This document shows positions 26,407 through 62,757 of a stretch of DNA of 62,776 bases, piece by piece. The position numbers and the translations under genes were made by a program. The notes under the pieces are model-generated. The model worked only from the letters and a program-made list of their open reading frames with translations. It made no database searches and was not told the origin of the DNA. Within the stretch, counting starts at the first letter, position 1. Each line of letters begins with the position of its first letter. The stretch lies in NCBI GenBank assembly GCA_964368095.1, contig CAYIZT010000001.1:1-62776 (forward strand). The letters are read 5' to 3'. Source of the DNA: an uncultured Methanosarcinales archaeon (lineage in GTDB: Archaea > Nanobdellota > Nanobdellia > Woesearchaeales > GW2011-AR9).

Positions 26407-26421
26407 TTTTCCTTTCCCTCC

Positions 26422-26472
26422 ATTGTTTATTGAATGGAGACACTGAGAATTGAACTCAGAACTTTTGGTTTG
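26422..26472 (-). other. tRNA-Trp 3'-half-like remnant (a direct-repeat copy of part of the gene at 28223..28293)
   Basis: The minus strand reads CAAACCAAAAGTT-CTGAG-TTCAATT-CTCAG-TGTCTCC-A, so the T arm and 3' acceptor strand are intact. No matching 5' half is present. A 12/13-bp hairpin (26473-26503) lies directly upstream. Confidence 0.55.
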
Positions 26473-27270: not shown

Positions 27271-28196
27271 TTATGCCTCCTTATATAGTTTTATGATATT
27301 GTCTAGAACAAGAGCGATAGCTTTGCGTTTCAGCTTTTTCCCATACAAAGAATTGATCTCATCCTCTTCACAGCAATCTAATCCCAAAATGTGCCCACTC
27401 ACTGAAGCAATTTTACAAAAATACCGCAAGGCTTCATCACAACTTTGCTCCAGTTTTTGTCGAACTTTTCTTTCATCATCCTCTAAGAAAATTCTTTGTC
27501 CGTTATTTGGTCCACGAGAACTAGGAACATAATGAACAACAACATCTGCAGTTTTAGTTCCTAAAGCGTAGGCATCAAGAAGATAGCCAAATGAGATGCT
27601 CGAATTAAGTGCTTGCATAATCCTATCGTACTGTCTCTCCTTGGTCGGACCTACTTTCAACGAAAAACTACGGGAAGCCAGAAATTGAATACATGATAAT
27701 TCATGCATGGGATAATCTCTTGCTCCACTAAGCTGTCTTTTATTTTCAGGAACAGTTTCTATCAGTTTTTCAGTTAAATTTGAACTTCTAATTCTTTCCG
27801 TAGTTTCCTGAAAAATAGAACTATATCCTTCAGAACTCATAAACTCAGAACAGAACAAAATATTGGTCTTAAAACCATACACTGCGGTAAATTTTTCCAG
27901 TGCTTGTACCAGTCTGTCTCTTCCGCTCTCAATCAAACTGTCATCTTTACCATTTATTTTTAAAAATTCGTCTACAACTAACAAGCTAAAATCATCTAGG
28001 AAGGAGTATAACAAATAAATGGGCAATATATCTATAGGGGTTCCGGCGGCATCAAATCCAAGACCAAAAAATGCTTTTTGTGTTTTATCTTCTAAGCTTG
28101 GTGCTAAAACGCCACCGACAGTAATTCTTATTTATTTCTATTTTTCGTATACTTTCACTATTCTGTTCTGATCCATGCTTATTTTCTGTTTTCATT
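27271..28196 (-). pseudogene. TyrRS-like class Ic synthetase homologue with degenerate HIGH/KMSKS motifs and an apparent N-terminal frameshift
   Basis: The frame is open over 27271-28131 with no ATG before the TTG at 28026. It aligns by eye to archaeal TyrRS: GFDAAGTPIDILPIY against GFEPSGKIHLGHYL, YPMHELSCIQFL against YPIMQVNDIHYL, and VPSSRG...IFLEDDERKVRQKL against KMSSSKG..IAVDDSPEEIRAKI. An ATG at 28196 with an SD-like GTGAGG lies in a different frame (ORF 28196-28092). The total span is about 308 codons, the size of a TyrRS. Confidence 0.5.
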
Positions 28197-28222
28197 TTTC
28201 TTTTCCTCACTTGTTTATTGAA

Positions 28223-28293
28223 TGGAGACGCTGAGGATTGAACTCAGAACTTTCTGGTTGGAGCAGAATATTTTAGCGTTAAACTACGCCTCC
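28223..28293 (-). tRNA. tRNA-Trp (anticodon CCA)
   Basis: The minus strand reads GGAGGCG-TA-GTTT-AACGCTA-AAAT-A-TTCTG-CTCCAAC-CAGAA-AGTT-CTGAG-TTCAATC-CTCAG-CGTCTCC-A. This is a 7-bp acceptor stem with one G:U and 71 nt in total. The D loop lacks GG and no CCA is encoded. Confidence 0.6.
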
Positions 28294-32178: not shown

Positions 32179-32789
32179 AAAAGAATTGCTTAAATTTCAG
32201 GCACAAGAAATGTGAAAATATCAACATTTCTGTGCAGAAAGACCTTGTCTTTCTTGCATCCCAGCAATTCTTAATTTCAATTTTTGGGCCGTAGCAAGCT
32301 ACGGGGTACAAGAAAAGAAGAAACTACTTCTTTTCTGTACAGAAGGCTACGCTTTCTTGTATTAGACCCAAAATTGAAATAAAAATAAGCGCCCGGAGGG
32401 AAAGTCGAAGCTCCGCTTCTAGTTTTGTTCCACGGAAACTTACTCGAACCCTCGATCTGTTCCTCTGCAGGGAACCGCTTTAGCCGCTTAGCCACGGACG
32501 CATATTAAAGCCAGAATAAAGATTATTTATATAGTTTTGGGCATAAAGCATATTTATTGTTCAATCATCTATTGTTTAATCTCCTTATTTATTCCAGAAT
32601 ACTCCTTTGCTTGTTATGGTTGGGATTTTTATTTCAATTTTGGGTATAATACCCCGTAGCTTGCTACGACCCAAAAATTGAAATTAAGAATTGCTGGTCA
32701 CGAAGTGAAAATTTCAGGCAATACCCCACAGCTTGCTGTGAAGTGAGCGAAGCGAACGATGGGATGCCTGAAATTTAAGCAATTCTTTT
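32179..32789. repeat. Three nested inverted-repeat pairs enclosing tRNA-Cys
   Basis: Pair A: 32179-32203 and 32765-32789, 25 nt, perfect. Pair B: 32261-32308 and 32650-32697, 48 nt, 1 mismatch. Pair C: 32366-32386 and 32625-32645, 21 nt, perfect. Perfect local hairpins occur at 32236-32254 and 32311-32336. Confidence 0.85.
32388..32501 (-). tRNA. tRNA-Cys (anticodon GCA) with a ~41-nt insertion in the T arm
   Basis: The minus strand reads GCGTCCG-TG-GCTA-AGCGGCTA-AAGC-G-GTTCC-CTGCAGA-GGAAC-AGATC-GAGGG-TTCGA[insert]..CCCTC-CGGGCGC-T. The discriminator is U73, as expected for Cys. The exact insert boundaries are ambiguous because TTCGA is repeated. Confidence 0.65.
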
Positions 32790-49860: not shown

Positions 49861-49980
49861 CGGACCCGAGGGGATTTGAACCCCCGACCTACAGCTTAGA
49901 AGGCTGTCGCCCTATTTGGCTAACGCCCAATCCCCCCTTTCCTGAGGGAACTGCGGGTATCCAGTCTAGGCTACGGGTCC
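49861..49980 (-). tRNA. tRNA-Arg (anticodon TCT) with a 45-nt insertion at the D-loop/D-stem junction
   Basis: The minus strand reads GGACCCG-TA-GCCT-AGACTGGATA-[CCCGCAG...GCCAAATA]-GGGC-G-ACAGC-CTTCTAA-GCTGT-AGGTC-GGGGG-TTCAAAT-CCCCT-CGGGTCC-G. The acceptor stem is perfect. The gene is 75 nt mature plus a 45-nt insert. Confidence 0.7.
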
Positions 49981-55793: not shown

Positions 55794-56504
55794 TTAATCT
55801 TTTTTAGTGATCTTATATAAGATTTCCGTTTCATTTTCCTTAACTCCAAGCTTTGAAAAGAATTGCACGATATTTTTAACATCCCGCTGCAATAACTCTT
55901 CTGAATTTGGCGTCTTCACTAACGTGGCTTGAGAAAAATCTATAAAATATGGTTTTTCCTGATGATTTAGGATATTGAACGGCGACAGGTCGCCATGGAT
56001 CAGTCCTCTCTCATACAGCTTTTTCATATCTTCAATGATCAAAGCAAAGAATTTTTTTGCATCTTTTGGTTTGGCATTTTTTAACATCGGCGCAGGTTCA
56101 TCGTCACCGATCATCTCTTCAACTAAAATATGATTCATGAAGACCATCGCTTCCGGTACACGGATCTTAGCCTCTTGCGCTCTTACCAGATTTTTATATT
56201 CCCGCTGGGTCCAGGCCAGGATGATCTGCCGGCGATGCTTCTGCAGAAAATCATAGCGCGGATCTTTCTTGATGTACTCAAACATGCGGTTGAAATCAGC
56301 GTTTTGGATACGATAGATCTTGACGATCACTTTATCTTTACCGCTGCTGGCCAGGAAGACATTGCTTTCCTTCCCCACCAAGACTGGACTGATCAGTTCA
56401 TCGAAATGCCCCCTGCTCTGTAGCTCAAATAAAGTCCGGTTGGTGAACTCATCAAAGACACCTTTCAGCGTTTTGAAGCGTTCTTGGTAGGTAAATTGGG
56501 TCAT
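55794..56504 (-). CDS. RIO-type serine protein kinase
   Basis: LVGKESNVF is the P-loop-like segment, VIVKIYR holds the Lys, LIHGDLSPFNIL is the catalytic loop and IDFSQA is the metal-binding segment. Confidence 0.8.
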   Translation of the reverse strand: MTQFTYQERFKTLKGVFDEFTNRTLFELQSRGHFDELISPVLVGKESNVFLASSGKDKVIVKIYRIQNADFNRMFEYIKKDPRYDFLQKHRRQIILAWTQREYKNLVRAQEAKIRVPEAMVFMNHILVEEMIGDDEPAPMLKNAKPKDAKKFFALIIEDMKKLYERGLIHGDLSPFNILNHQEKPYFIDFSQATLVKTPNSEELLQRDVKNIVQFFSKLGVKENETEILYKITKKD

Positions 56505-57506: not shown

Positions 57507-58859
57507 ATGGCAAAAATAAGCCCAGTAGCGGCTAAATATATCATACATTCAACTATTTTCATTGACGGAGTTGTTGATAAACCGGACGTCATCGGGGCAA
57601 TTTTCGGGCAGACCGAAGGATTGTTAGGCAACGACTTAGAATTGCGTGAACTGCAAAGAAGCGGTAAAATTGGGCGTATCGAAGTAAATGTAAATATCAG
57701 TGCCGGTAAGACTAAGGGAGAAATAATCATCCCCAGTTCTTTGGACAAGACTGAGACCGCAATCATCGCCGCAGCGATGGAAATCATCCAGCGCATCGGT
57801 CCCTGTAATGCCAAGATTGAAGTACAAAAAATTGAAGATATTAGGATCAGTAAAAGACAGTTTGTAATTGAACGTGCTAAAGTTTTATTGAAAGAGCTTA
57901 CTCAGGAAACTTTGCCGGATTCGCAGGAATTATCGGATGAAGTAGCACAATCCGTACGTATGATGGAAGTGCTTGAATATGGTAAAGATAAACTTCCTGC
58001 CGGACCGGACATAGATTCAAGTGATGAGATCATAGTAGTAGAAGGCCGGGCTGACGTCCTGGTCTTGCTAAAGCATGGATTCAAGAACGCAATTTCCATG
58101 AACGGGACTTCTTGTCCGCAGACAATCAAGGATCTTAGCAAAGTCAAGTCTATCACTGTATTCGTCGACGGCGACCGTGGCGGAGATTTAATCATACGTG
58201 AGCTCTTAGGAGTAGCTGACGTTGATTTCGTAACTAGAGCGCCTGACGGCAAAGAAGTTGAAGAACTTGCTAAAAAAGAGATCCATCAGGCTATCCGAGG
58301 CAGGATCACCGCTGAACAAGCTAAACTTGATCTTGGAGTCAATAGCGATGGTACACTTAAAGAGCAATCAGATCGCATGGTCGAGCGAAAATCATTCTCT
58401 ACCAATAGAGATAACGGCCGAGAGCAGAATGGCTACCGGCGCGAATCTCGGACAGATTCCAGAGATATGCGCAGCGATCGAGATGTCCGGAATGATCCTA
58501 GAAGCAGCAGGTATCCTTCCAGAACAGCAGCACCTCCTCAAGCTCCAGTCTCAAGAGAAAAGCGCTTGACTCCGGCGGAAAAGAAGATTTTCAAAGAAAC
58601 CTTAGAAGCTCTTTTTGGGACTAAAGGAGCCTGTATCTTCGACCAGAAGCTGAACATCTTGGGTAAAGTTCCTTTGAGTGAACTTAGTTCAACCGTCAAG
58701 AGTTTGAACGGCGGAATTTACGCCATCGCTCTAGATGGAGAAGTTGATACTGAACTGGTCAATCTTGCTGAAAGATATGGTATAAATCATATCGTAGGAA
58801 CAACTTCCAAAGCAGCTGAAACACAAAAAGTAAGTGTGTTGGTTGAAGCGGAACTGTAA
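57507..58859 (+). CDS. dnaG: Archaeal-type DnaG primase (Toprim)
   Basis: N-terminal KYIIHSTIFIDGVVDKPDVIGAIFGQTEGLLG, Toprim motifs VVEGRADV and VDGDRGGDLI, and an Arg/Ser/Asp-rich linker before the C-terminal domain. Confidence 0.9.
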   Translation: MAKISPVAAKYIIHSTIFIDGVVDKPDVIGAIFGQTEGLLGNDLELRELQRSGKIGRIEVNVNISAGKTKGEIIIPSSLDKTETAIIAAAMEIIQRIGPCNAKIEVQKIEDIRISKRQFVIERAKVLLKELTQETLPDSQELSDEVAQSVRMMEVLEYGKDKLPAGPDIDSSDEIIVVEGRADVLVLLKHGFKNAISMNGTSCPQTIKDLSKVKSITVFVDGDRGGDLIIRELLGVADVDFVTRAPDGKEVEELAKKEIHQAIRGRITAEQAKLDLGVNSDGTLKEQSDRMVERKSFSTNRDNGREQNGYRRESRTDSRDMRSDRDVRNDPRSSRYPSRTAAPPQAPVSREKRLTPAEKKIFKETLEALFGTKGACIFDQKLNILGKVPLSELSSTVKSLNGGIYAIALDGEVDTELVNLAERYGINHIVGTTSKAAETQKVSVLVEAEL

Positions 58860-58875
58860 GATTAGTGGAACAAAC

Positions 58876-59643
58876 ATGAATGCACTACAATTAGCATTGA
58901 AGCCAGGACAAGAATTGTTTGAAGGAGAGTATCGTACTAAAATGGCTGAATTGCGTCAAGCAGGATACACTCCTTGGAGTACAGAAGATTGGATGGATGC
59001 CCGTAATGGTGTTGATTCTGATAATCCTTTATGGAACAATTATGGCGATACTGATTTCGGCATTGCCGGAAGCAAACAGAAAATCTATCTGATGCCTCAT
59101 TCTGAGAGATTACGAGCAGTTACGCCACAAACAAGATTAATCAAAGGCGGTCTTTCATTTACTCAAGATGGAGCAGTATCGACATACAATCGGGGCGATC
59201 TTATTCTCGGCAGAGATTTGACTGAAGAGCAGGCAAGAACAAGTCCGGTTTGGCTGGATTTCGCGGCCGGCGATCAGAAGCAATTAGACAGGTATGTTGA
59301 AAAAACATTCCGTTTTGGAAAAGACAAGTTTAACTATGATACTATGATGGGCATTTTTGTGCCTGAGGATGAAGTTGAACGGGCGGTATTGCTCTATAGA
59401 CTTAACTATAGTTCTCGTGCCTATGGCAGCTACCATCTTGGCAACAACACCCGTTTCGTTGGGGTACGTCGTGGGAGCGAAGCGACCAAGGTGCCCGCAG
59501 GGCGCGACGCGCAAACAGTAAGTCCTTATCGGAAAGATCCACGCTCTGATCTAGAAATTTTTCTGAGTGAACATAGTCTATCCAAAAATGAGTTATACAA
59601 AGCGGTAGAACTATATAAAACCGTGAAAGAACTAAAAGTTTAA
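58876..59643 (+). CDS. DGR target (variable) protein, likely C-type-lectin/FGE-like fold
   Basis: Contains the VR at 59380-59466 in frame. The VR-encoded segment ends in NNTRFVGVRR, resembling the N-x-G-F-R-V-x-R ending of CLec-fold DGR variable regions. The track ORF starts at a GTG at 58834; the first ATG is at 58876. Confidence 0.8.
   Translation: MNALQLALKPGQELFEGEYRTKMAELRQAGYTPWSTEDWMDARNGVDSDNPLWNNYGDTDFGIAGSKQKIYLMPHSERLRAVTPQTRLIKGGLSFTQDGAVSTYNRGDLILGRDLTEEQARTSPVWLDFAAGDQKQLDRYVEKTFRFGKDKFNYDTMMGIFVPEDEVERAVLLYRLNYSSRAYGSYHLGNNTRFVGVRRGSEATKVPAGRDAQTVSPYRKDPRSDLEIFLSEHSLSKNELYKAVELYKTVKELKV
59380..59466 (+). repeat. DGR variable repeat (VR)
   Basis: Matches 59843-59929 over 87 nt with 12 mismatches. 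At 11 of them the TR has A and the VR has T or G. Confidence 0.85.
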
Positions 59644-59842
59644 GAACTTCTTCTTTTTCTCTTGTTTTGTCCAATACGGCGCTATCAAAGCGCTCAGCTC
59701 GGACTACATGCTCTTGTGCTAGGGCTTAAGGCGACTTAGCTATGGAAATTTCAGCATAGACATGTTCTATCGCTGATAAGACAGCTGCGACTACCAGAAG
59801 GATGAAGCAGCAGTGCGGTAATGGTATAAGGGCTACAGACGG

Positions 59843-59929
59843 CGGGCGGTATTGCTCAATAGACTTAACAATAGGTCTCAAGCCAATGGCAACAACCATC
59901 TTAACAACAACACCCGTTTCGTTGGAATA
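59843..59929 (+). repeat. DGR template repeat (TR)
   Basis: An intergenic copy rich in AAY triplets (it would read NRLNNRSQANGNNHLNNNTRFVG), located 27 nt upstream of the RT start codon. Confidence 0.85.
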
Positions 59930-59955
59930 GCCTGGGCTGGTATTGGTATTGTAAA

Positions 59956-61098
59956 ATGGGGAACTTTTCTTCTCAAGATACTTATTCTCTTTATGATCAA
60001 GTTTGTTCTCTTCAAAATCTTCAAGCAGCGTTCAGCAAGGCGCGTAAAGGAAAAACAAAGAGGTCCGACGTTCTAGAATTTGAATCTAACTTGAAGAACA
60101 ATTTACTGCAGCTGCGTGCTGACTTGCTCTTGCATTCGTACCGCCCACAGCCGCTGACTACGTTCATCATTCGCGACCCAAAGACCAGAAAAATTAACAA
60201 ATCAGCATTTCGTGATAGAATAGTACATCATGCTCTCTGCAATATTCTTGAGCCCATCTATGAAAAGATATTCATTTACGATAGTTATGCCAATCGCAAA
60301 GGCAAAGGAACTCTCAAAGCACTGGAACGATTCGATTATTTCAAAAAAGAAGTTGCGATTCCCTATAAAGGCTATATTACTGGCTATTGTTTTAAAGCTG
60401 ATGTCAAACATTATTTTGAGACTGTTGATCATGATATCCTGCTTAATATCATCCAACGCAGGATTAAAGACAAAAGTATTCTATTCTTACTCAAGAATAT
60501 TCTCTCAAATTACAGCAATAGCGGGCAGGGAAAAGGCATGCCTCTCGGCAATCTTACCTCACAATTTCTCGCCAATGTCTATCTGAATGAGTTGGATCAA
60601 TTTGCGAAGCATACTCTTAAAGTGAAACTCTATATCCGCTATGTTGATGATTTTGTAATCTTACATAAAAAGAAAGAGGTCTTAGAATTCTACAAACGGG
60701 AAATTGATTCATTTTTACAGCAGAAGCTTAGGTTAGAGCTTCATCCTCTAAAATCCAAAATAATTCCCTTACGTAAAGGAATTACCTTTCTCGGCTTTCG
60801 TGTTTTCTATTATCATAAATTACTTCGAGAATCTAATTGGCAAGCGGCTAAAAGAAAAATAGTTTCTTTAAAGAATGACTTTGACAAAGGAGTGATTGAT
60901 TATGATGTCGTGTTCGATAGCATGATGGGCTGGTTTGCCTACGCCAAACAGGCGAATACTTTTAGAATTAGGGAAATCATTGGCAGAAAATTAGAAGAAT
61001 CTTTTCCTAACCAGCTATCAAGTATTGAATTAAGAAAAATAATAAAAATTTCCGTTAAACTGCCGAGACTAAATAATCCCTCTGCCTTTAAAGCGTAA
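59956..61098 (+). CDS. DGR-type reverse transcriptase
   Basis: 380 aa. RT motifs are IRDPKTRKI, FKADVKHYFETVDH, GMPLGNLTSQFLANVYL (the DGR-typical I/LGxxxSQ) and RYVDDFV. No maturase X, endonuclease domain or intron RNA domains are seen. Confidence 0.9.
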   Translation: MGNFSSQDTYSLYDQVCSLQNLQAAFSKARKGKTKRSDVLEFESNLKNNLLQLRADLLLHSYRPQPLTTFIIRDPKTRKINKSAFRDRIVHHALCNILEPIYEKIFIYDSYANRKGKGTLKALERFDYFKKEVAIPYKGYITGYCFKADVKHYFETVDHDILLNIIQRRIKDKSILFLLKNILSNYSNSGQGKGMPLGNLTSQFLANVYLNELDQFAKHTLKVKLYIRYVDDFVILHKKKEVLEFYKREIDSFLQQKLRLELHPLKSKIIPLRKGITFLGFRVFYYHKLLRESNWQAAKRKIVSLKNDFDKGVIDYDVVFDSMMGWFAYAKQANTFRIREIIGRKLEESFPNQLSSIELRKIIKISVKLPRLNNPSAFKA

Positions 61099-61147: not shown

Positions 61148-62494
61148 ATGGTGTTTGATGTCATAATCGGCCGTTCCAAGAAAGATGTAGAGAAATACGG
61201 CAAGCAGGGAACAGCTTTTATTGGAAAACAATACGTCCAGATGGGACAGACCACTTCTTTATCGAATCTGGTCTATCTAGATATCGCCAGCGCGCATGTC
61301 GCGTTTATCGTCGGTAAGCGTGGCTCGGGAAAATCCTACTCCCTTGGCATGATTGCTGAAGGTTTGTCCGATCTGCCTTTGGAAGTTAAACAAAACCTTT
61401 CTATCGTCTTGCTTGATACCATGGGAATTTACTGGACCATGAAATATCCTAATTTTCAGGAAGCGGAACTGCTTCGTGATTGGAAGATAGATTCACGAGG
61501 ATTGGATGTCAAAATTTATACTCCTACCGGATTCTTCTATGGATACAAAAATGAAGGGATCCCTACTGATTTTCCTTTCTCAATCCGGCCGTTAGATGTC
61601 GGCCCTCACGACTGGTGCACTGCATTTAATCTTGATCCTAACTCAGCAGAAGGAGTGCTTATCACCAAGATAGTGCAGGATTTAAATCAAAAGAAAGAAA
61701 GCTATGATCTGGATTATCTCATAGAACTAGTAAAGAAAGATGCAGAAAGCGATCGGGTAGTAAAAAGTGTTGTTATCAATCAATTCGAGAAAGCCAAAGG
61801 CTGGGAAATTTTTTCCAAAGAGGGGACGCCTTTGAAAGATATCATCGCCCCTGGGCAAGTAACAGTATTAGATGTCAGTCCGTATGCAACCATGGCTTCA
61901 GGGTGGGAAATCAAGGCTTTAGTAGTAGGTTTGATCTGCCGAAACTTATTCAATCAGCGTATGCTGGCCAGAAAGACGGAAGAATTCAAAAGTGTTGACG
62001 CGGCCATGCATTATTTCACAAAAAGAGTAGAAGAGAAGATGGAAGAGCCGTTAGTATGGATAGCGCTCGATGAAGCGCATGAATTGCTTCCTAAAGAAGG
62101 TAAGACTGCTGCCACGGAAGCGTTGATCACTATCTTGCGTGAAGGGCGCCAGCCGGGAATCTCTTTGATATTAGCTTCACAGCAGCCGGGAAAGATCCAT
62201 ACTGATGTGATGACCCAGTCTGACATAGTCATCGCTCATCGTCTTACTGCCAGATTAGATGTAGAAGCATTAGCACAATTGACCCAAAGCTATATGCGCC
62301 AGGGATTGGAACAGGAAATAGATCATCTGCCTCGGGTAAAAGGATCGGCAGTTATTTTTGATGACGCCAATGAGCGGATTTTTCCGGTGCAATTGCGTCC
62401 AAGATTTACTTGGCACGGCGGCGGAAGTCCGATAGCAATTTCTGAGAAAAAAGAATATTTCTCTAAAAGTTTGGAAGAGCTCAAAAAATTGTGA
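61148..62494 (+). CDS. HerA/DUF87-like P-loop ATPase
   Basis: Walker A GKRGSGKS, Walker B WIALDEAHELLP and an N-terminal barrel-like segment; 448 aa. Confidence 0.7.
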   Translation: MVFDVIIGRSKKDVEKYGKQGTAFIGKQYVQMGQTTSLSNLVYLDIASAHVAFIVGKRGSGKSYSLGMIAEGLSDLPLEVKQNLSIVLLDTMGIYWTMKYPNFQEAELLRDWKIDSRGLDVKIYTPTGFFYGYKNEGIPTDFPFSIRPLDVGPHDWCTAFNLDPNSAEGVLITKIVQDLNQKKESYDLDYLIELVKKDAESDRVVKSVVINQFEKAKGWEIFSKEGTPLKDIIAPGQVTVLDVSPYATMASGWEIKALVVGLICRNLFNQRMLARKTEEFKSVDAAMHYFTKRVEEKMEEPLVWIALDEAHELLPKEGKTAATEALITILREGRQPGISLILASQQPGKIHTDVMTQSDIVIAHRLTARLDVEALAQLTQSYMRQGLEQEIDHLPRVKGSAVIFDDANERIFPVQLRPRFTWHGGGSPIAISEKKEYFSKSLEELKKL

Positions 62495-62729: not shown

Positions 62730-62757
62730 AGGCAATTCCCCACAGCTTGCTGTGGGG
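62730..62757. repeat. Copy of the hairpin repeat AGGCAAT(T/A)CCCCACAGCTTGCTGTG
   Basis: 62730-62754 matches 32716-32740 with 1 mismatch. Here the hairpin extends to CCCCACAGC-TT-GCTGTGGGG (62738-62757). Confidence 0.8.

Follow-up and report, generated by a model that had tools for sequence, protein, structure and literature searches.

We conclude that the locus described here is very likely a complete diversity-generating retroelement (DGR): a chromosomal, Avd-less element of the Nanoarchaeota DUSEL4/AvpA type, with the mechanism proposed below. It lies in the genome of a DPANN groundwater nanoarchaeon, within the 62 776-nt (62.8-kb) stretch of DNA that we analysed as a whole and refer to as the window. 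The initial annotation had taken the locus for a complete DGR of a class already known in DPANN-type archaea, and we came to the same view on both points. Every defining feature that could be tested was found (RT type, adenine pattern, IMH/IMH* pair with hairpin, and AvpA fold), and the boundary motifs match those of published Nanoarchaeota DGRs (PMC4372165). The window DGR is a further example of an archaeal type already described and not a new kind of system.

A single cassette was observed in the 62.8-kb window. Its order on the + strand is target, structured RNA, TR and RT, and the 312-nt intergenic region between the target and RT genes holds the TR. The cassette is flanked by a DnaG primase gene on one side and a HerA-like ATPase gene on the other (DnaG-target-RT-HerA), and this chromosomal site is conserved. 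As in other DGRs, the VR falls within the 3′ part of a coding target, while the TR is non-coding and close to the RT gene, which starts 24 nt downstream of it. The NCBI names of the two proteins, 'hypothetical protein' for the target and 'reverse transcriptase/maturase family protein' for the RT, could both be bettered. The main parts of the cassette are as follows.

58876..59643, + strand: target gene, 255 aa, with a predicted AvpA-like C-type-lectin fold (ORF, ortholog starts, AF2 model)
59380..59466, + strand: VR, target codons 169-197 (exact comparison with TR)
59843..59929, + strand: TR, non-coding (exact comparison with VR; conserved in orthologs)
59956..61098, + strand: DGR RT, 380 aa, with LGNLTSQ and YVDD, pI 9.8 (Pfam RVT_1, PDB search)

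The exact comparison of VR and TR, at an offset of 463, gave 87 ungapped positions with 12 mismatches, in agreement with the initial annotation. At 11 of these 12 positions the TR base is A and the VR base is T or G (hypergeometric P = 1.2e-5 for at least 11, with 29 A among the 87 nt of TR). The coordinates given earlier for them (59858, 59870, 59880, 59881, 59885, 59892, 59894, 59903, 59904, 59926 and 59927) are exact, but the last two do not belong with the others: the mismatches at 59926 and 59927 (TR TGGAAT versus VR TGGGGT) are the same in every orthologous cassette, and so reflect the fixed difference between IMH and IMH*, not mutagenesis. When they are set aside, the mutable part contains nine adenine substitutions and one non-adenine difference. 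The latter, TR G59875 against VR T59412, is present as described; the VR of the ortholog L011 has the same T at the homologous position, and homing alone does not account for it. The codon changes reported earlier were likewise recovered in frame 0 of the target ORF (AAT to TAT three times, AAC to AGC, TAC and GGC, and CAA to CGT). Homology between VR and TR ends abruptly on both sides, and the pair (repeat family D2) is the only repeat of such kind within the window. The TR has 26 mutable adenines up to 59912 and nine AAY codons, from which a repertoire of ∼4.6e13 peptides is possible; 13 residues of the target are variable.

The adenine-specific TR/VR pattern recurs in six orthologous cassettes. 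The fractions of mismatches located at TR adenines were 14/14 in L013, 18/19 in L018, 9/11 in L011, 13/13 in L034 and 9/10 in L032. The VRs of the orthologs differ from each other, while the TRs stay 94% identical (mean pairwise identity, seven orthologs) against a synonymous divergence of 0.6-0.66 in the flanking genes. Among the orthologous VRs pN/pS is 1.29 with a very low pS (0.195), which marks sequences that a conserved template has overwritten repeatedly. In the family alignment the hypervariable columns coincide with the codons containing TR adenines.

We also observed a remote VR (L026, 1599-1681) in the same Hainich H51 samples, at a coverage (∼4x) like that of the window locus. Against the window TR it has 14 mismatches, all at adenines (14/14), whereas 3-5 non-adenine mismatches were found against the other three TR types. 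The window TR very probably also feeds this remote paralogous target, whose placement in the same genome is deduced from TR specificity, samples and coverage, the contigs being separate.

The same repeats could belong to a fossil DGR, once active, in which diversification has ended and the VR differences are frozen. We looked for within-population VR variation in replicate assemblies and in the proteins clustered with the remote target at 90%, and observed differences only outside the VR. The MAG and two replicate assemblies from the same aquifer well agree in the VR consensus, and two replicates likewise agree in the remote VR; these assemblies are consensus sequences at 4x coverage, in which minority variants could not show. 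One non-adenine mismatch has accumulated in the window VR. In several relatives the RNA-TR-RT module is lost at the DnaG/HerA site, and the VRs of close relatives without it have drifted, with 6-8 non-adenine differences. In the window, however, the RT has an uninterrupted ORF in which no catalytic or motif residue is missing, and a pN/pS of 0.19 among orthologs indicates purifying selection on it. The TR (94%) and the non-coding RNA domain (82%) are conserved against a synonymous divergence of ∼0.66, with compensatory changes, and the remote VR has zero non-adenine differences from the TR. We consider a fossil rather unlikely and favour a DGR that may still be active.

The boundaries of the repeats carry the following elements.

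59450-59462, + strand: adenine-free stretch CCCGTTTCGTTGG, with a 3-nt overlap with the IMH core; codes for the invariant RFVG strand
59460..59465, + strand: IMH core TGGGGT, identical in all VRs including the remote VR
59492..59504, + strand: GC-rich hairpin TGCCC-GCA-GGGCG (DNA folds of window, L013 and L018)
59923..59928, + strand: IMH* core TGGAAT, 3′ end of the TR; invariant among the orthologous TRs

An IMH that differs from IMH* (TGGGGT versus TGGAAT) and an inverted repeat 3′ of the VR, both expected of a DGR, are present. The hairpin begins 25 nt 3′ of the VR, inside the coding region, where it codes for the residues PAG of a disordered linker. A stem-loop of this form, with GCA as its triloop, folds in the window, in L013 and in L018, and its stem shows compensatory changes (GCCC/GGGC versus CGCC/GGCG); L011 has a weak version of it and the remote target none. 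Fold z-scores of the whole post-VR segment were not significant; the support for the hairpin comes entirely from conservation and compensatory changes. DUSEL4 Nanoarchaeota DGRs have the same TGGGGT and TGGAAT motifs, and the published archaeal DGR hairpins lie within the target gene and have trinucleotide loops (PMC4372165).

The initial annotation had suggested a C-type-lectin fold for the target from a VR peptide ending in NNTRFVGVRR, which is indeed present in the ORF. We modelled the structure with AF2 (mean pLDDT 69; 53-58 in the VR region, below 50 at residues 200-219). In a Foldseek search of the PDB with this model, AvpA (5ioo_A) was the sole match with E < 1e-3 (E 2e-5, prob 1.0, TM 0.57 over 216 columns). 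By sequence the match to AvpA was weak with phmmer (E 0.029) and weaker still with the family profile (E 0.95), the aligned stretch being the VR region with its RFVGV motif; the link to AvpA therefore rests on the fold search. Pfam and NCBIfam gave no match for the target, and neither did a fold search of the viral predicted structures in BFVD give a significant one, so that no Mtd-like relation is visible. The target has other traits of the AvpA type: TRFVGVRR, and a VR that is internal, with 58 aa after it in which two helices are predicted; in AvpA the helical tail downstream of the VR has 46 aa (PMC5006420). [quoted passage not shown] The earlier suggestion that the target family needs characterisation does not hold, as AvpA is already known structurally (PDB 5ioo).

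No signal peptide or hydrophobic segment was detected in the target (maximum KD(19) = 0.56). Its N-terminal domain has a pN/pS of 0.33. The two-helix C-terminal tail has the following position.

59533..59640, + strand: C-terminal tail of the target, aa 220-255 (model helices 225-232 and 237-252)

In this tail pS is 0.68 and pN/pS 0.36, which indicates conservation at the protein level and not at the DNA level. We rejected the idea that the tail is a DNA-level cis element, as its synonymous sites vary freely, and also that a conserved promoter of TATA type for the TR RNA lies within it, as the string CTATATAAA is not conserved. All orthologs have a T-rich tract after the target stop codon.

The ∼200-nt interval between target and TR is a covarying structured RNA, composed of the following elements.

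59671..59833, + strand: 5′ domain of the DGR RNA, RT-11-like, four hairpins (Rfam RT-11, RNAalifold, pair counts)
59678-59695, 59723-59741, 59751-59776 and 59784-59811, + strand: hairpins H1, H2, H3 and H4 of the 5′ domain
59710-59716 with 59827-59833, + strand: helix Pc, which encloses H2-H4
59928..59946, + strand: 3′ strands of the long-range helices Pb and Pa (pair counts, single-sequence folds)
59928-59937 with 59697-59706, + strand: helix Pb, which ties the TR 3′ end to the 5′ domain
59940-59946 with 59671-59677, + strand: helix Pa, which ties the sequence after TR to the 5′ domain

In the alignment of seven sequences, 55 pairs in seven helices are paired in 97.9% of the cells, compared to 28-40% when the partners were slid, and 13 compensatory pairs were observed compared to 0-3 with slid partners. 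All seven helices have at least one compensatory pair (H1-H4, 1-3 each). The long-range helices (helices 1 and 3 of the alignment) are 100% and 96.8% paired, with one compensatory pair each, and both Pa and Pb were reproduced in the single-sequence MFE and centroid folds. Their strands finish 10 nt 5′ of the RT start codon.

In Rfam, RT-11 matches 59675-59815 over the full model length (101.5 bits, E 1e-22), and H1-H4 align with the helices of the model. The match recurs in six of six orthologs with RT and in none without RT; for window and orthologs the E-values range from 1e-22 to 9e-7, and every match spans the whole model. The scores (101.5 bits in the window, 47-99 in the orthologs) stay below the gathering score of 143.5 bits; at gathering thresholds the Rfam scan returned only tRNAs, and RT-11 appeared with E-value thresholds only. 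By Rfam's rule the window RNA is therefore a divergent relative of RT-11 and not a member. It has in common with RT-11 (RF03106; Weinberg et al. 2017, PMC5737381) the same four hairpins, the conserved GGACUACAYGCUCU linker and an adjoining RT gene. RT-16 (RF03019; PMC5737381) gave a weaker match, with the enclosing helix common to both, and lies directly 5′ of the TR in the related DGRs L037 and L038. In the original description only RT-10 was tied to a DGR, with speculation for the other motifs (PMC5737381). Compared with RT-11 as published, the window RNA lies directly 5′ of a TR and is extended by helices to the TR 3′ side.

That the 200 nt upstream of the TR might instead be protein-coding, or a promoter or terminator acting at the DNA level, is suggested by the T-rich tract and by small possible ORFs (42 aa on the + strand, 57 aa on the − strand). 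We consider this very unlikely. It does not explain the compensatory pairs in all seven helices, lost when the partners were slid, or the full-length match to the RT-11 covariance model. The region is present only with RT, and its many G-U pairs could form only in RNA of the + strand. These observations argue for a structured RNA belonging to the DGR.

DGR-clade RTs have (I/L/V)GxxxSQ in place of the QGxxxSP of other RTs. Both LGNLTSQ and YVDD, as first annotated, are present in the 380-aa ORF. Among PDB sequences the best match of this RT is the Bordetella phage bRT (8ub7; 152 bits, E 1.5e-43); group II and retron-type RTs reach at most 97 bits (E no better than 1e-26). Catalytic and fidelity residues are kept, among them K29, F66, R74 and I76 of bRT, and the (I/L)GxxxSQ motif is also conserved. 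PDB ranking, motif and residues all indicate an RT of the DGR type. The nearest viral relatives of the RT, in IMG/VR, all have adenine-biased TR/VR pairs. An RT of another class (group II intron, retron or defence) placed by chance beside a diverged duplication of the neighbouring gene's 3′ end, as the NCBI name and the best NCBIfam model (group II RT/maturase, 160 bits, far under the cut-off of 300) might suggest, is refuted as far as sequence analysis reaches and is left with a negligible probability, given the PDB ranking, a one-directional adenine-only pattern in six orthologs and a second VR, IMH/IMH* motifs equal to those of published archaeal DGRs, and the absence of maturase or endonuclease domains and of intron RNA (the initial annotation had likewise seen no intron or maturase features).

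Avd is found in about 74% of DGRs and is not strictly defining, while the best-studied DGR mechanism requires it. Pfam searches detected no Avd homologue among the cassette proteins and the ten small ORFs of the window, and no ORF between target and RT has Avd character. Of the catalogued DGRs 29% have no accessory genes, and in the CPR/DPANN set 90% have architecture B3, TR-(avd)-RT (PMC5758913). The window cassette is of the rarer, accessory-free form in this set, and resembles Architecture A1 (Wu et al. 2018, PMC5758913) in its order target-TR-RT without avd, HRDC, MSL or CH1. The initial annotation had called the architecture minimal. This is not so: the RT-11-like structured RNA and the hairpin also belong to it, and a second target elsewhere very probably does.

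The closest known systems are the DUSEL4/AvpA DGRs (Paul et al. 2015, PMC4372165; Handa et al. 2016, PMC5006420; PDB 5ioo). The window cassette has in common with them the order target-TR-RT, the IMH/IMH* motifs, an in-gene hairpin with trinucleotide loop, an internal VR followed by a helical tail of ∼50 aa, an RFxGV strand encoded by the IMH region, the AvpA-subclass CLec fold, about 1e13 possible variants, target-only 'partial DGRs' elsewhere in the genome, and groundwater or subsurface DPANN hosts. Unlike them, its target is only ∼18% identical to AvpA, its hairpin loop is GCA instead of the reported GRA, and it lacks an Avd-like ORF between target and RT. For DUSEL4 at least four scattered DGRs per genome have been reported, whereas we observed one cassette per 62.8 kb, at a fixed DnaG/HerA site.

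With the BPP-1 DGR (mtd-avd-TR-brt; Handa et al. 2018, PMC6182149; bioRxiv 10.1101/2023.10.23.563531; PDB 8ub7) the window cassette shares the RT family and key residues, the adenine-specific TR-to-VR transfer and the IMH/IMH* directionality. Both have a GC-rich hairpin 3′ of the VR, and in both the TR is held in a structured RNA with pairing of sequences upstream and downstream of it. Each TR also has at its 3′ end a stretch free of adenine, which in BPP-1 is the starting point of the cDNA. In BPP-1, however, the structured RNA is a 140-nt spacer 3′ of the TR (RT-10), whereas in the window it is almost wholly 5′ (RT-11-like). The window cassette also differs in the lack of Avd, a TR-RT gap of only 24 nt, a hairpin within coding sequence and with a triloop, and a target that is a cellular soluble protein instead of a phage tail fibre.

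From these comparisons we propose the following mechanism, in which the cis-priming, the homing of the cDNA, the part played by the hairpin and present-day activity are taken over by analogy from the Bordetella phage DGR. A transcript of ∼285 nt (about 59665-59950) would carry the TR as a ∼95-nt segment, held between the RT-11-like multi-hairpin 5′ domain and the two long-range helices. The 380-aa RT would bind this RNA and copy the TR to cDNA from the adenine-free CCCGUUUCGUUGG stretch, with misincorporation opposite adenines, probably primed in cis by the RNA. The cDNA would then home to and replace the VR of the adjacent AvpA-like gene. Its direction would be set by TGGGGT (IMH) in the recipient and TGGAAT (IMH*) in the donor, with possible help from the target's hairpin with its GCA triloop. 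The same TR would very probably supply the remote paralogous target. The outcome would be up to ∼5e13 variants of a lectin-fold binding pocket on a soluble protein.

We tentatively suggest, with somewhat more doubt than belief, that the RT-11-like RNA 5′ of the TR and the Pa/Pb clamp replace the Avd and the 3′ spacer of the Bordetella phage. They would position the template, may give the cis-primer (A59706, which pairs with U59928 beside the adenine-free start region, is a candidate), and would let an RT-only, Avd-independent RNP diversify the adjacent and the remote targets.

Thousands of DGRs have been catalogued in DPANN and CPR genomes. As a DGR the window cassette adds little to these, the class being widely catalogued and the target fold having a crystal structure. 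Its interest lies elsewhere. It is a clean natural case of a single TR that supplies the target next to it and, very probably, a second one at a distance, and the precise loss of the module in related genomes provides a series showing the fate of the variable protein after diversification stops. The cassette is also a compact two-component system (RT and ∼290-nt RNA) for testing Avd-less DGRs, and possibly for engineering. The orphan motifs RT-11 and RT-16 receive a concrete genomic role as a scaffold on the 5′ side of the template RNA in archaeal DGRs that lack accessory genes. If the RNA does stand in for Avd, these two motifs would be the missing RNA half of accessory-free DGRs.

Exact alignment of the variable repeat (VR, 59380-59466) with the template repeat (TR, 59843-59929) gave an 87-nt ungapped match at a constant offset of 463 nt, with 12 mismatches and a sharp drop in homology at both ends. 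At 11 of these, exactly the positions listed in the initial annotation, an A in TR faces T or G in VR; the sole non-adenine mismatch, TR G59875 against VR T59412, was also confirmed. As 29 of the 87 nt of TR are A, the probability of at least 11 of 12 mismatches falling on A is 1.2e-5. A repeat search of the whole window found no other repeat of this kind. VR is read in frame 0 of the 255-aa target ORF (58876-59643), where the changes affect positions 1 and 2 of AAY-type codons, in line with the initial annotation. The 26 mutable adenines and 9 AAY codons of TR could encode about 4.6e13 peptides, the same order as the variant number reported for AvpA (PDB 5ioo), the variable protein of the DUSEL4 Nanoarchaeota DGRs.

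Not all of the 11 adenine mismatches, however, could be kept as products of mutagenesis. VR ends in ...CGTTTCGTTGGGGTACG and TR in ...CGTTTCGTTGGAATAGCC in all the orthologous cassettes, so the A to G pair at 59926-59927 is fixed and marks the boundary motifs IMH (VR) versus IMH* (TR). TGGGGT and TGGAAT agree exactly with the motifs published for the DUSEL4 DGRs (PMC4372165). With this pair set aside, 9 true adenine substitutions are left in the window VR. A T at the VR position homologous to 59412 is also present in the orthologous cassette L011, and the G59875/T59412 difference may therefore have arisen as a point mutation under selection or as a rare error at a non-adenine. Consensus sequences (the only level compared) were unchanged between replicate assemblies for both this VR and that of a remote target gene described below. 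A hairpin, TGCCC-GCA-GGGCG (59492-59504), lies 25 nt 3' of VR. Published archaeal DGR hairpins, located within the target gene, have GRA triloops (PMC4372165), and the window hairpin is thus a minor variant; its GCA triloop is kept in the orthologous cassettes L013 and L018 on stems with compensatory changes.

Both LGNLTSQ and YVDD, as annotated, were found in the 380-aa RT ORF (59956-61098), of which RVT_1 is the only Pfam match. The best solved-structure match in the PDB is bRT, the RT of the Bordetella phage BPP-1 DGR (8ub7, E 1.5e-43, 152 bits); no RT of the group II intron or retron type exceeds 97 bits. In bRT, residues K29, F66, R74 and I76 and the IGxxxSQ motif make contact with both template and incoming nucleotide (bioRxiv 10.1101/2023.10.23.563531); the four residues are conserved here, and the motif reads LGNLTSQ. 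More than 7,000 database proteins match the RT at E < 1e-20, the named ones being mostly from Nanoarchaeota or Woesearchaeota, and an adenine-biased TR/VR pair stands beside every one of the closest IMG/VR relatives (38-53% identity). Across seven orthologs, pN/pS of the RT is 0.19 at pS 0.66.

The target protein matched no Pfam or NCBIfam family, and no signal peptide or hydrophobic segment was found in it. Its only notable PDB sequence match is AvpA (E 0.029), aligned via VR and the RFVGV strand. An AlphaFold model built with 18 homologues as input (mean pLDDT 69, pTM 0.57) had AvpA as its single significant match in a PDB fold search (E 2e-5, probability 1.0, TM 0.57, 216 columns), which supports the C-type-lectin fold predicted earlier; mammalian C-type lectins came far lower in the list (E > 3). 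Three peculiarities known from publications on AvpA recur here: an internal VR followed by a tail (58 aa, with helices 225-232 and 237-252 in the model), an IMH encoding an RFxGV strand, and a hairpin in a disordered coding linker (pLDDT < 50 at residues 200-219). Nei-Gojobori counts were obtained from eight family members:

N-terminal domain: pN/pS 0.33, pS 0.61
VR: pN/pS 1.29, pS 0.195
C-terminal tail: pN/pS 0.36, pS 0.68

The values for the tail indicate that it is conserved as protein and not as a DNA signal. Judged from these counts, recopying from TR holds the silent sites of VR similar.

Under the name 'Nanoarchaeota archaeon', an NCBI MAG contains the target as MEK6809387.1 (locus tag AABY40_01815) and the RT as MEK6809389.1. 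ENA assemblies of 0.1-µm filtrates, whose record names have the well label 'Hain_H51', also contain this locus; we take the label to mean Hainich groundwater well H51. The neighbours of the cassette are housekeeping genes, and the element is chromosomal, not carried on a virus or plasmid:

55794-56504, minus strand: RIO kinase
57507-58859: archaeal DnaG-type Toprim protein
61148-62494: HerA/DUF87 ATPase

Genome and metagenome searches recovered the order DnaG-target-TR-RT-HerA also in L011, L013, L018, L031, L032 and L034, with RTs 75-84% identical. Each of these cassettes has its own adenine-biased VR, with mismatches at TR adenines in 14/14 cases in L013, 18/19 in L018, 13/13 in L034, 9/10 in L032 and 9/11 in L011. 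The TR of L031 (927-1010) reads TAC CTC ATC where all other TRs read AAC AAC AAC, and some sites of the altered codons are A in the corresponding VR; this template may be eroded or overwritten.

In L003-L010, L019 and L020 the order is DnaG-target-HerA, with nothing between target and HerA. In L003, the one examined at the nucleotide level, divergence starts directly past the target stop codon, and VR has drifted to 6-8 non-adenine differences from any TR. Among the RT-less relatives VR is decayed or the target gene truncated. Since the most divergent and some close genomes retain the RNA-TR-RT module, it is more likely to have been lost repeatedly than gained repeatedly.

Other features of the region were also observed. 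The HerA/DUF87 gene is interrupted by an intein in L003-L005 (7176-9023) and L018 (8250-10700), as called by Pfam Intein_splicing and a split tblastn match; the window gene has no intein. Elsewhere in the window, a 48-nt inverted repeat (32261-32308 / 32650-32697, 98% complementary) encloses 341 nt with a weak minus-strand tRNA-like match (32433-32496, Rfam tRNA 21 bits, E 0.086). A palindrome of the form CCCCGTAGCTTGCTACGG terminates each arm, and similar palindromes (CCCCACAGCTTGCTGTGGGG) occur at 32724-32743 and at the window end (62738-62757), where chance would predict none; a small repeated element, palindromic or MITE-like, is possible. The second copy of a 66-nt direct repeat (26407-26472 and 28195-28260, 86% identity) overlaps the 3' portion of the minus-strand tRNA-Trp (28223-28293). 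Duplication of a tRNA end at a distance of about 1.8 kb points to a small integrated element with these copies as its attachment sites. A minus-strand Rfam tRNA match at 49869-49922 (41 bits, model positions 8-63 only, no ARAGORN call) could represent a tRNA that is truncated, split or interrupted by an intron.

Searching by DNA pattern for the IMH region turned up a further target gene in L026, a locus identical to L029 (Hain_H51_01um_R1_29422, 1095-1892), with replicate L030, from the same H51 samples. The encoded protein, P0003 (265 aa), shares 84% identity with the window target across residues 1-212 and carries another tail. Between its VR and the window TR there are 14 differences, every one at an adenine, and none elsewhere; with the three other TR types, this VR has 3-5 non-adenine mismatches. 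The gene has the same IMH as the window VR and no GCA hairpin, and a 545-aa gene encoded on the other strand overlaps the 3' end of the P0003 gene. From the TR specificity, the shared samples and the equal coverage (about 4x), the best interpretation of P0003 is that of a second, remote target of the window TR. The locus L017 relates likewise to the L013-type TR (15/15 mismatches at adenines). Target-only 'partial DGRs' have been described already (Paul et al. 2015, PMC4372165).

Conservation of the 312 nt from target to RT far exceeds that of neutral sites (5' domain 82% identical, TR 94% identical, against pS about 0.66). RNAalifold on seven orthologs predicted the following elements:

59678-59695: hairpin H1
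59723-59741: hairpin H2
59751-59776: hairpin H3
59784-59811: hairpin H4
59710-16 with 59827-33: enclosing helix Pc
59671-77 with 59940-46: long-range helix Pa
59697-706 with 59928-37: long-range helix Pb

Through Pa and Pb, the 5' domain is predicted to base-pair with the IMH*-bearing end of TR and the adjoining 3' sequence. Outside TR there are 55 pairs, with 97.9% of cells paired, compared to 28-40% when partners were slid by 1-3 columns; compensatory changes support 13 pairs, against 0-3 in the slid controls. In 500 shuffles, neither the pairing nor the covariation score of the real alignment was reached. Each helix contains one or more compensatory pairs (Pa and Pb one each only), and Pa, Pb and Pc were recovered by single-sequence MFE and centroid.

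The Rfam motif RT-11 spans 59675-59815 at full model length (101.5 bits, E 1e-22), and RT-16 gives a weak match; both were obtained under E-value thresholds, the RT-11 score being below its gathering score of 143.5. RT-11 matches in 6/6 RT-bearing orthologs, and no match was found in the RT-less L003 or the remote target. RT-1 to RT-19 were found beside RT genes (Weinberg et al. 2017, PMC5737381), where RT-10 was tied to the BPP-1 spacer and a DGR role of the other motifs was speculation only. In the IMG/VR loci L037 (2235-2464) and L038 (2251-2464), RT-16 scores above its gathering score and abuts the TR 5' end, and in L040/L041 (2219-2470) RT-14 lies directly 3' of TR. Several orphan 'RT-n' motifs therefore appear to be TR-flanking parts of DGR RNAs.

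In BPP-1, structured RNA must surround TR, and an upstream-downstream duplex together with a TR:spacer duplex places Sp A56 to prime at TR G117, within an adenine-free stretch (PMC6182149; bioRxiv 10.1101/2023.10.23.563531). The window RNA has the same logic in another layout. Unlike in BPP-1, the scaffold lies on the 5' side of TR, the distance from TR to RT is only 24 nt, and there is neither a stem-loop binding the accessory protein Avd nor an Avd gene, none having been found among the cassette proteins and ten small window ORFs. A59706, paired with U59928, would be a candidate priming nucleotide. Like this cassette, DGRs of architecture A1, 29% of those catalogued, lack accessory genes (PMC5758913).

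The initial reading of a complete DGR was thus supported, by the adenine-biased TR/VR pair, the DGR-type RT, IMH/IMH*, the hairpin and the AvpA fold, and by the fit of the element to the DUSEL4/AvpA-type nanoarchaeal DGRs, with which it belongs. The novelty is modest: RT-11/RT-16-like RNAs that probably act as 5' scaffold in the template RNAs of DGRs lacking Avd, a remote target with good support, and a fixed chromosomal site from which the RNA-TR-RT module has probably been lost, cleanly and more than once.
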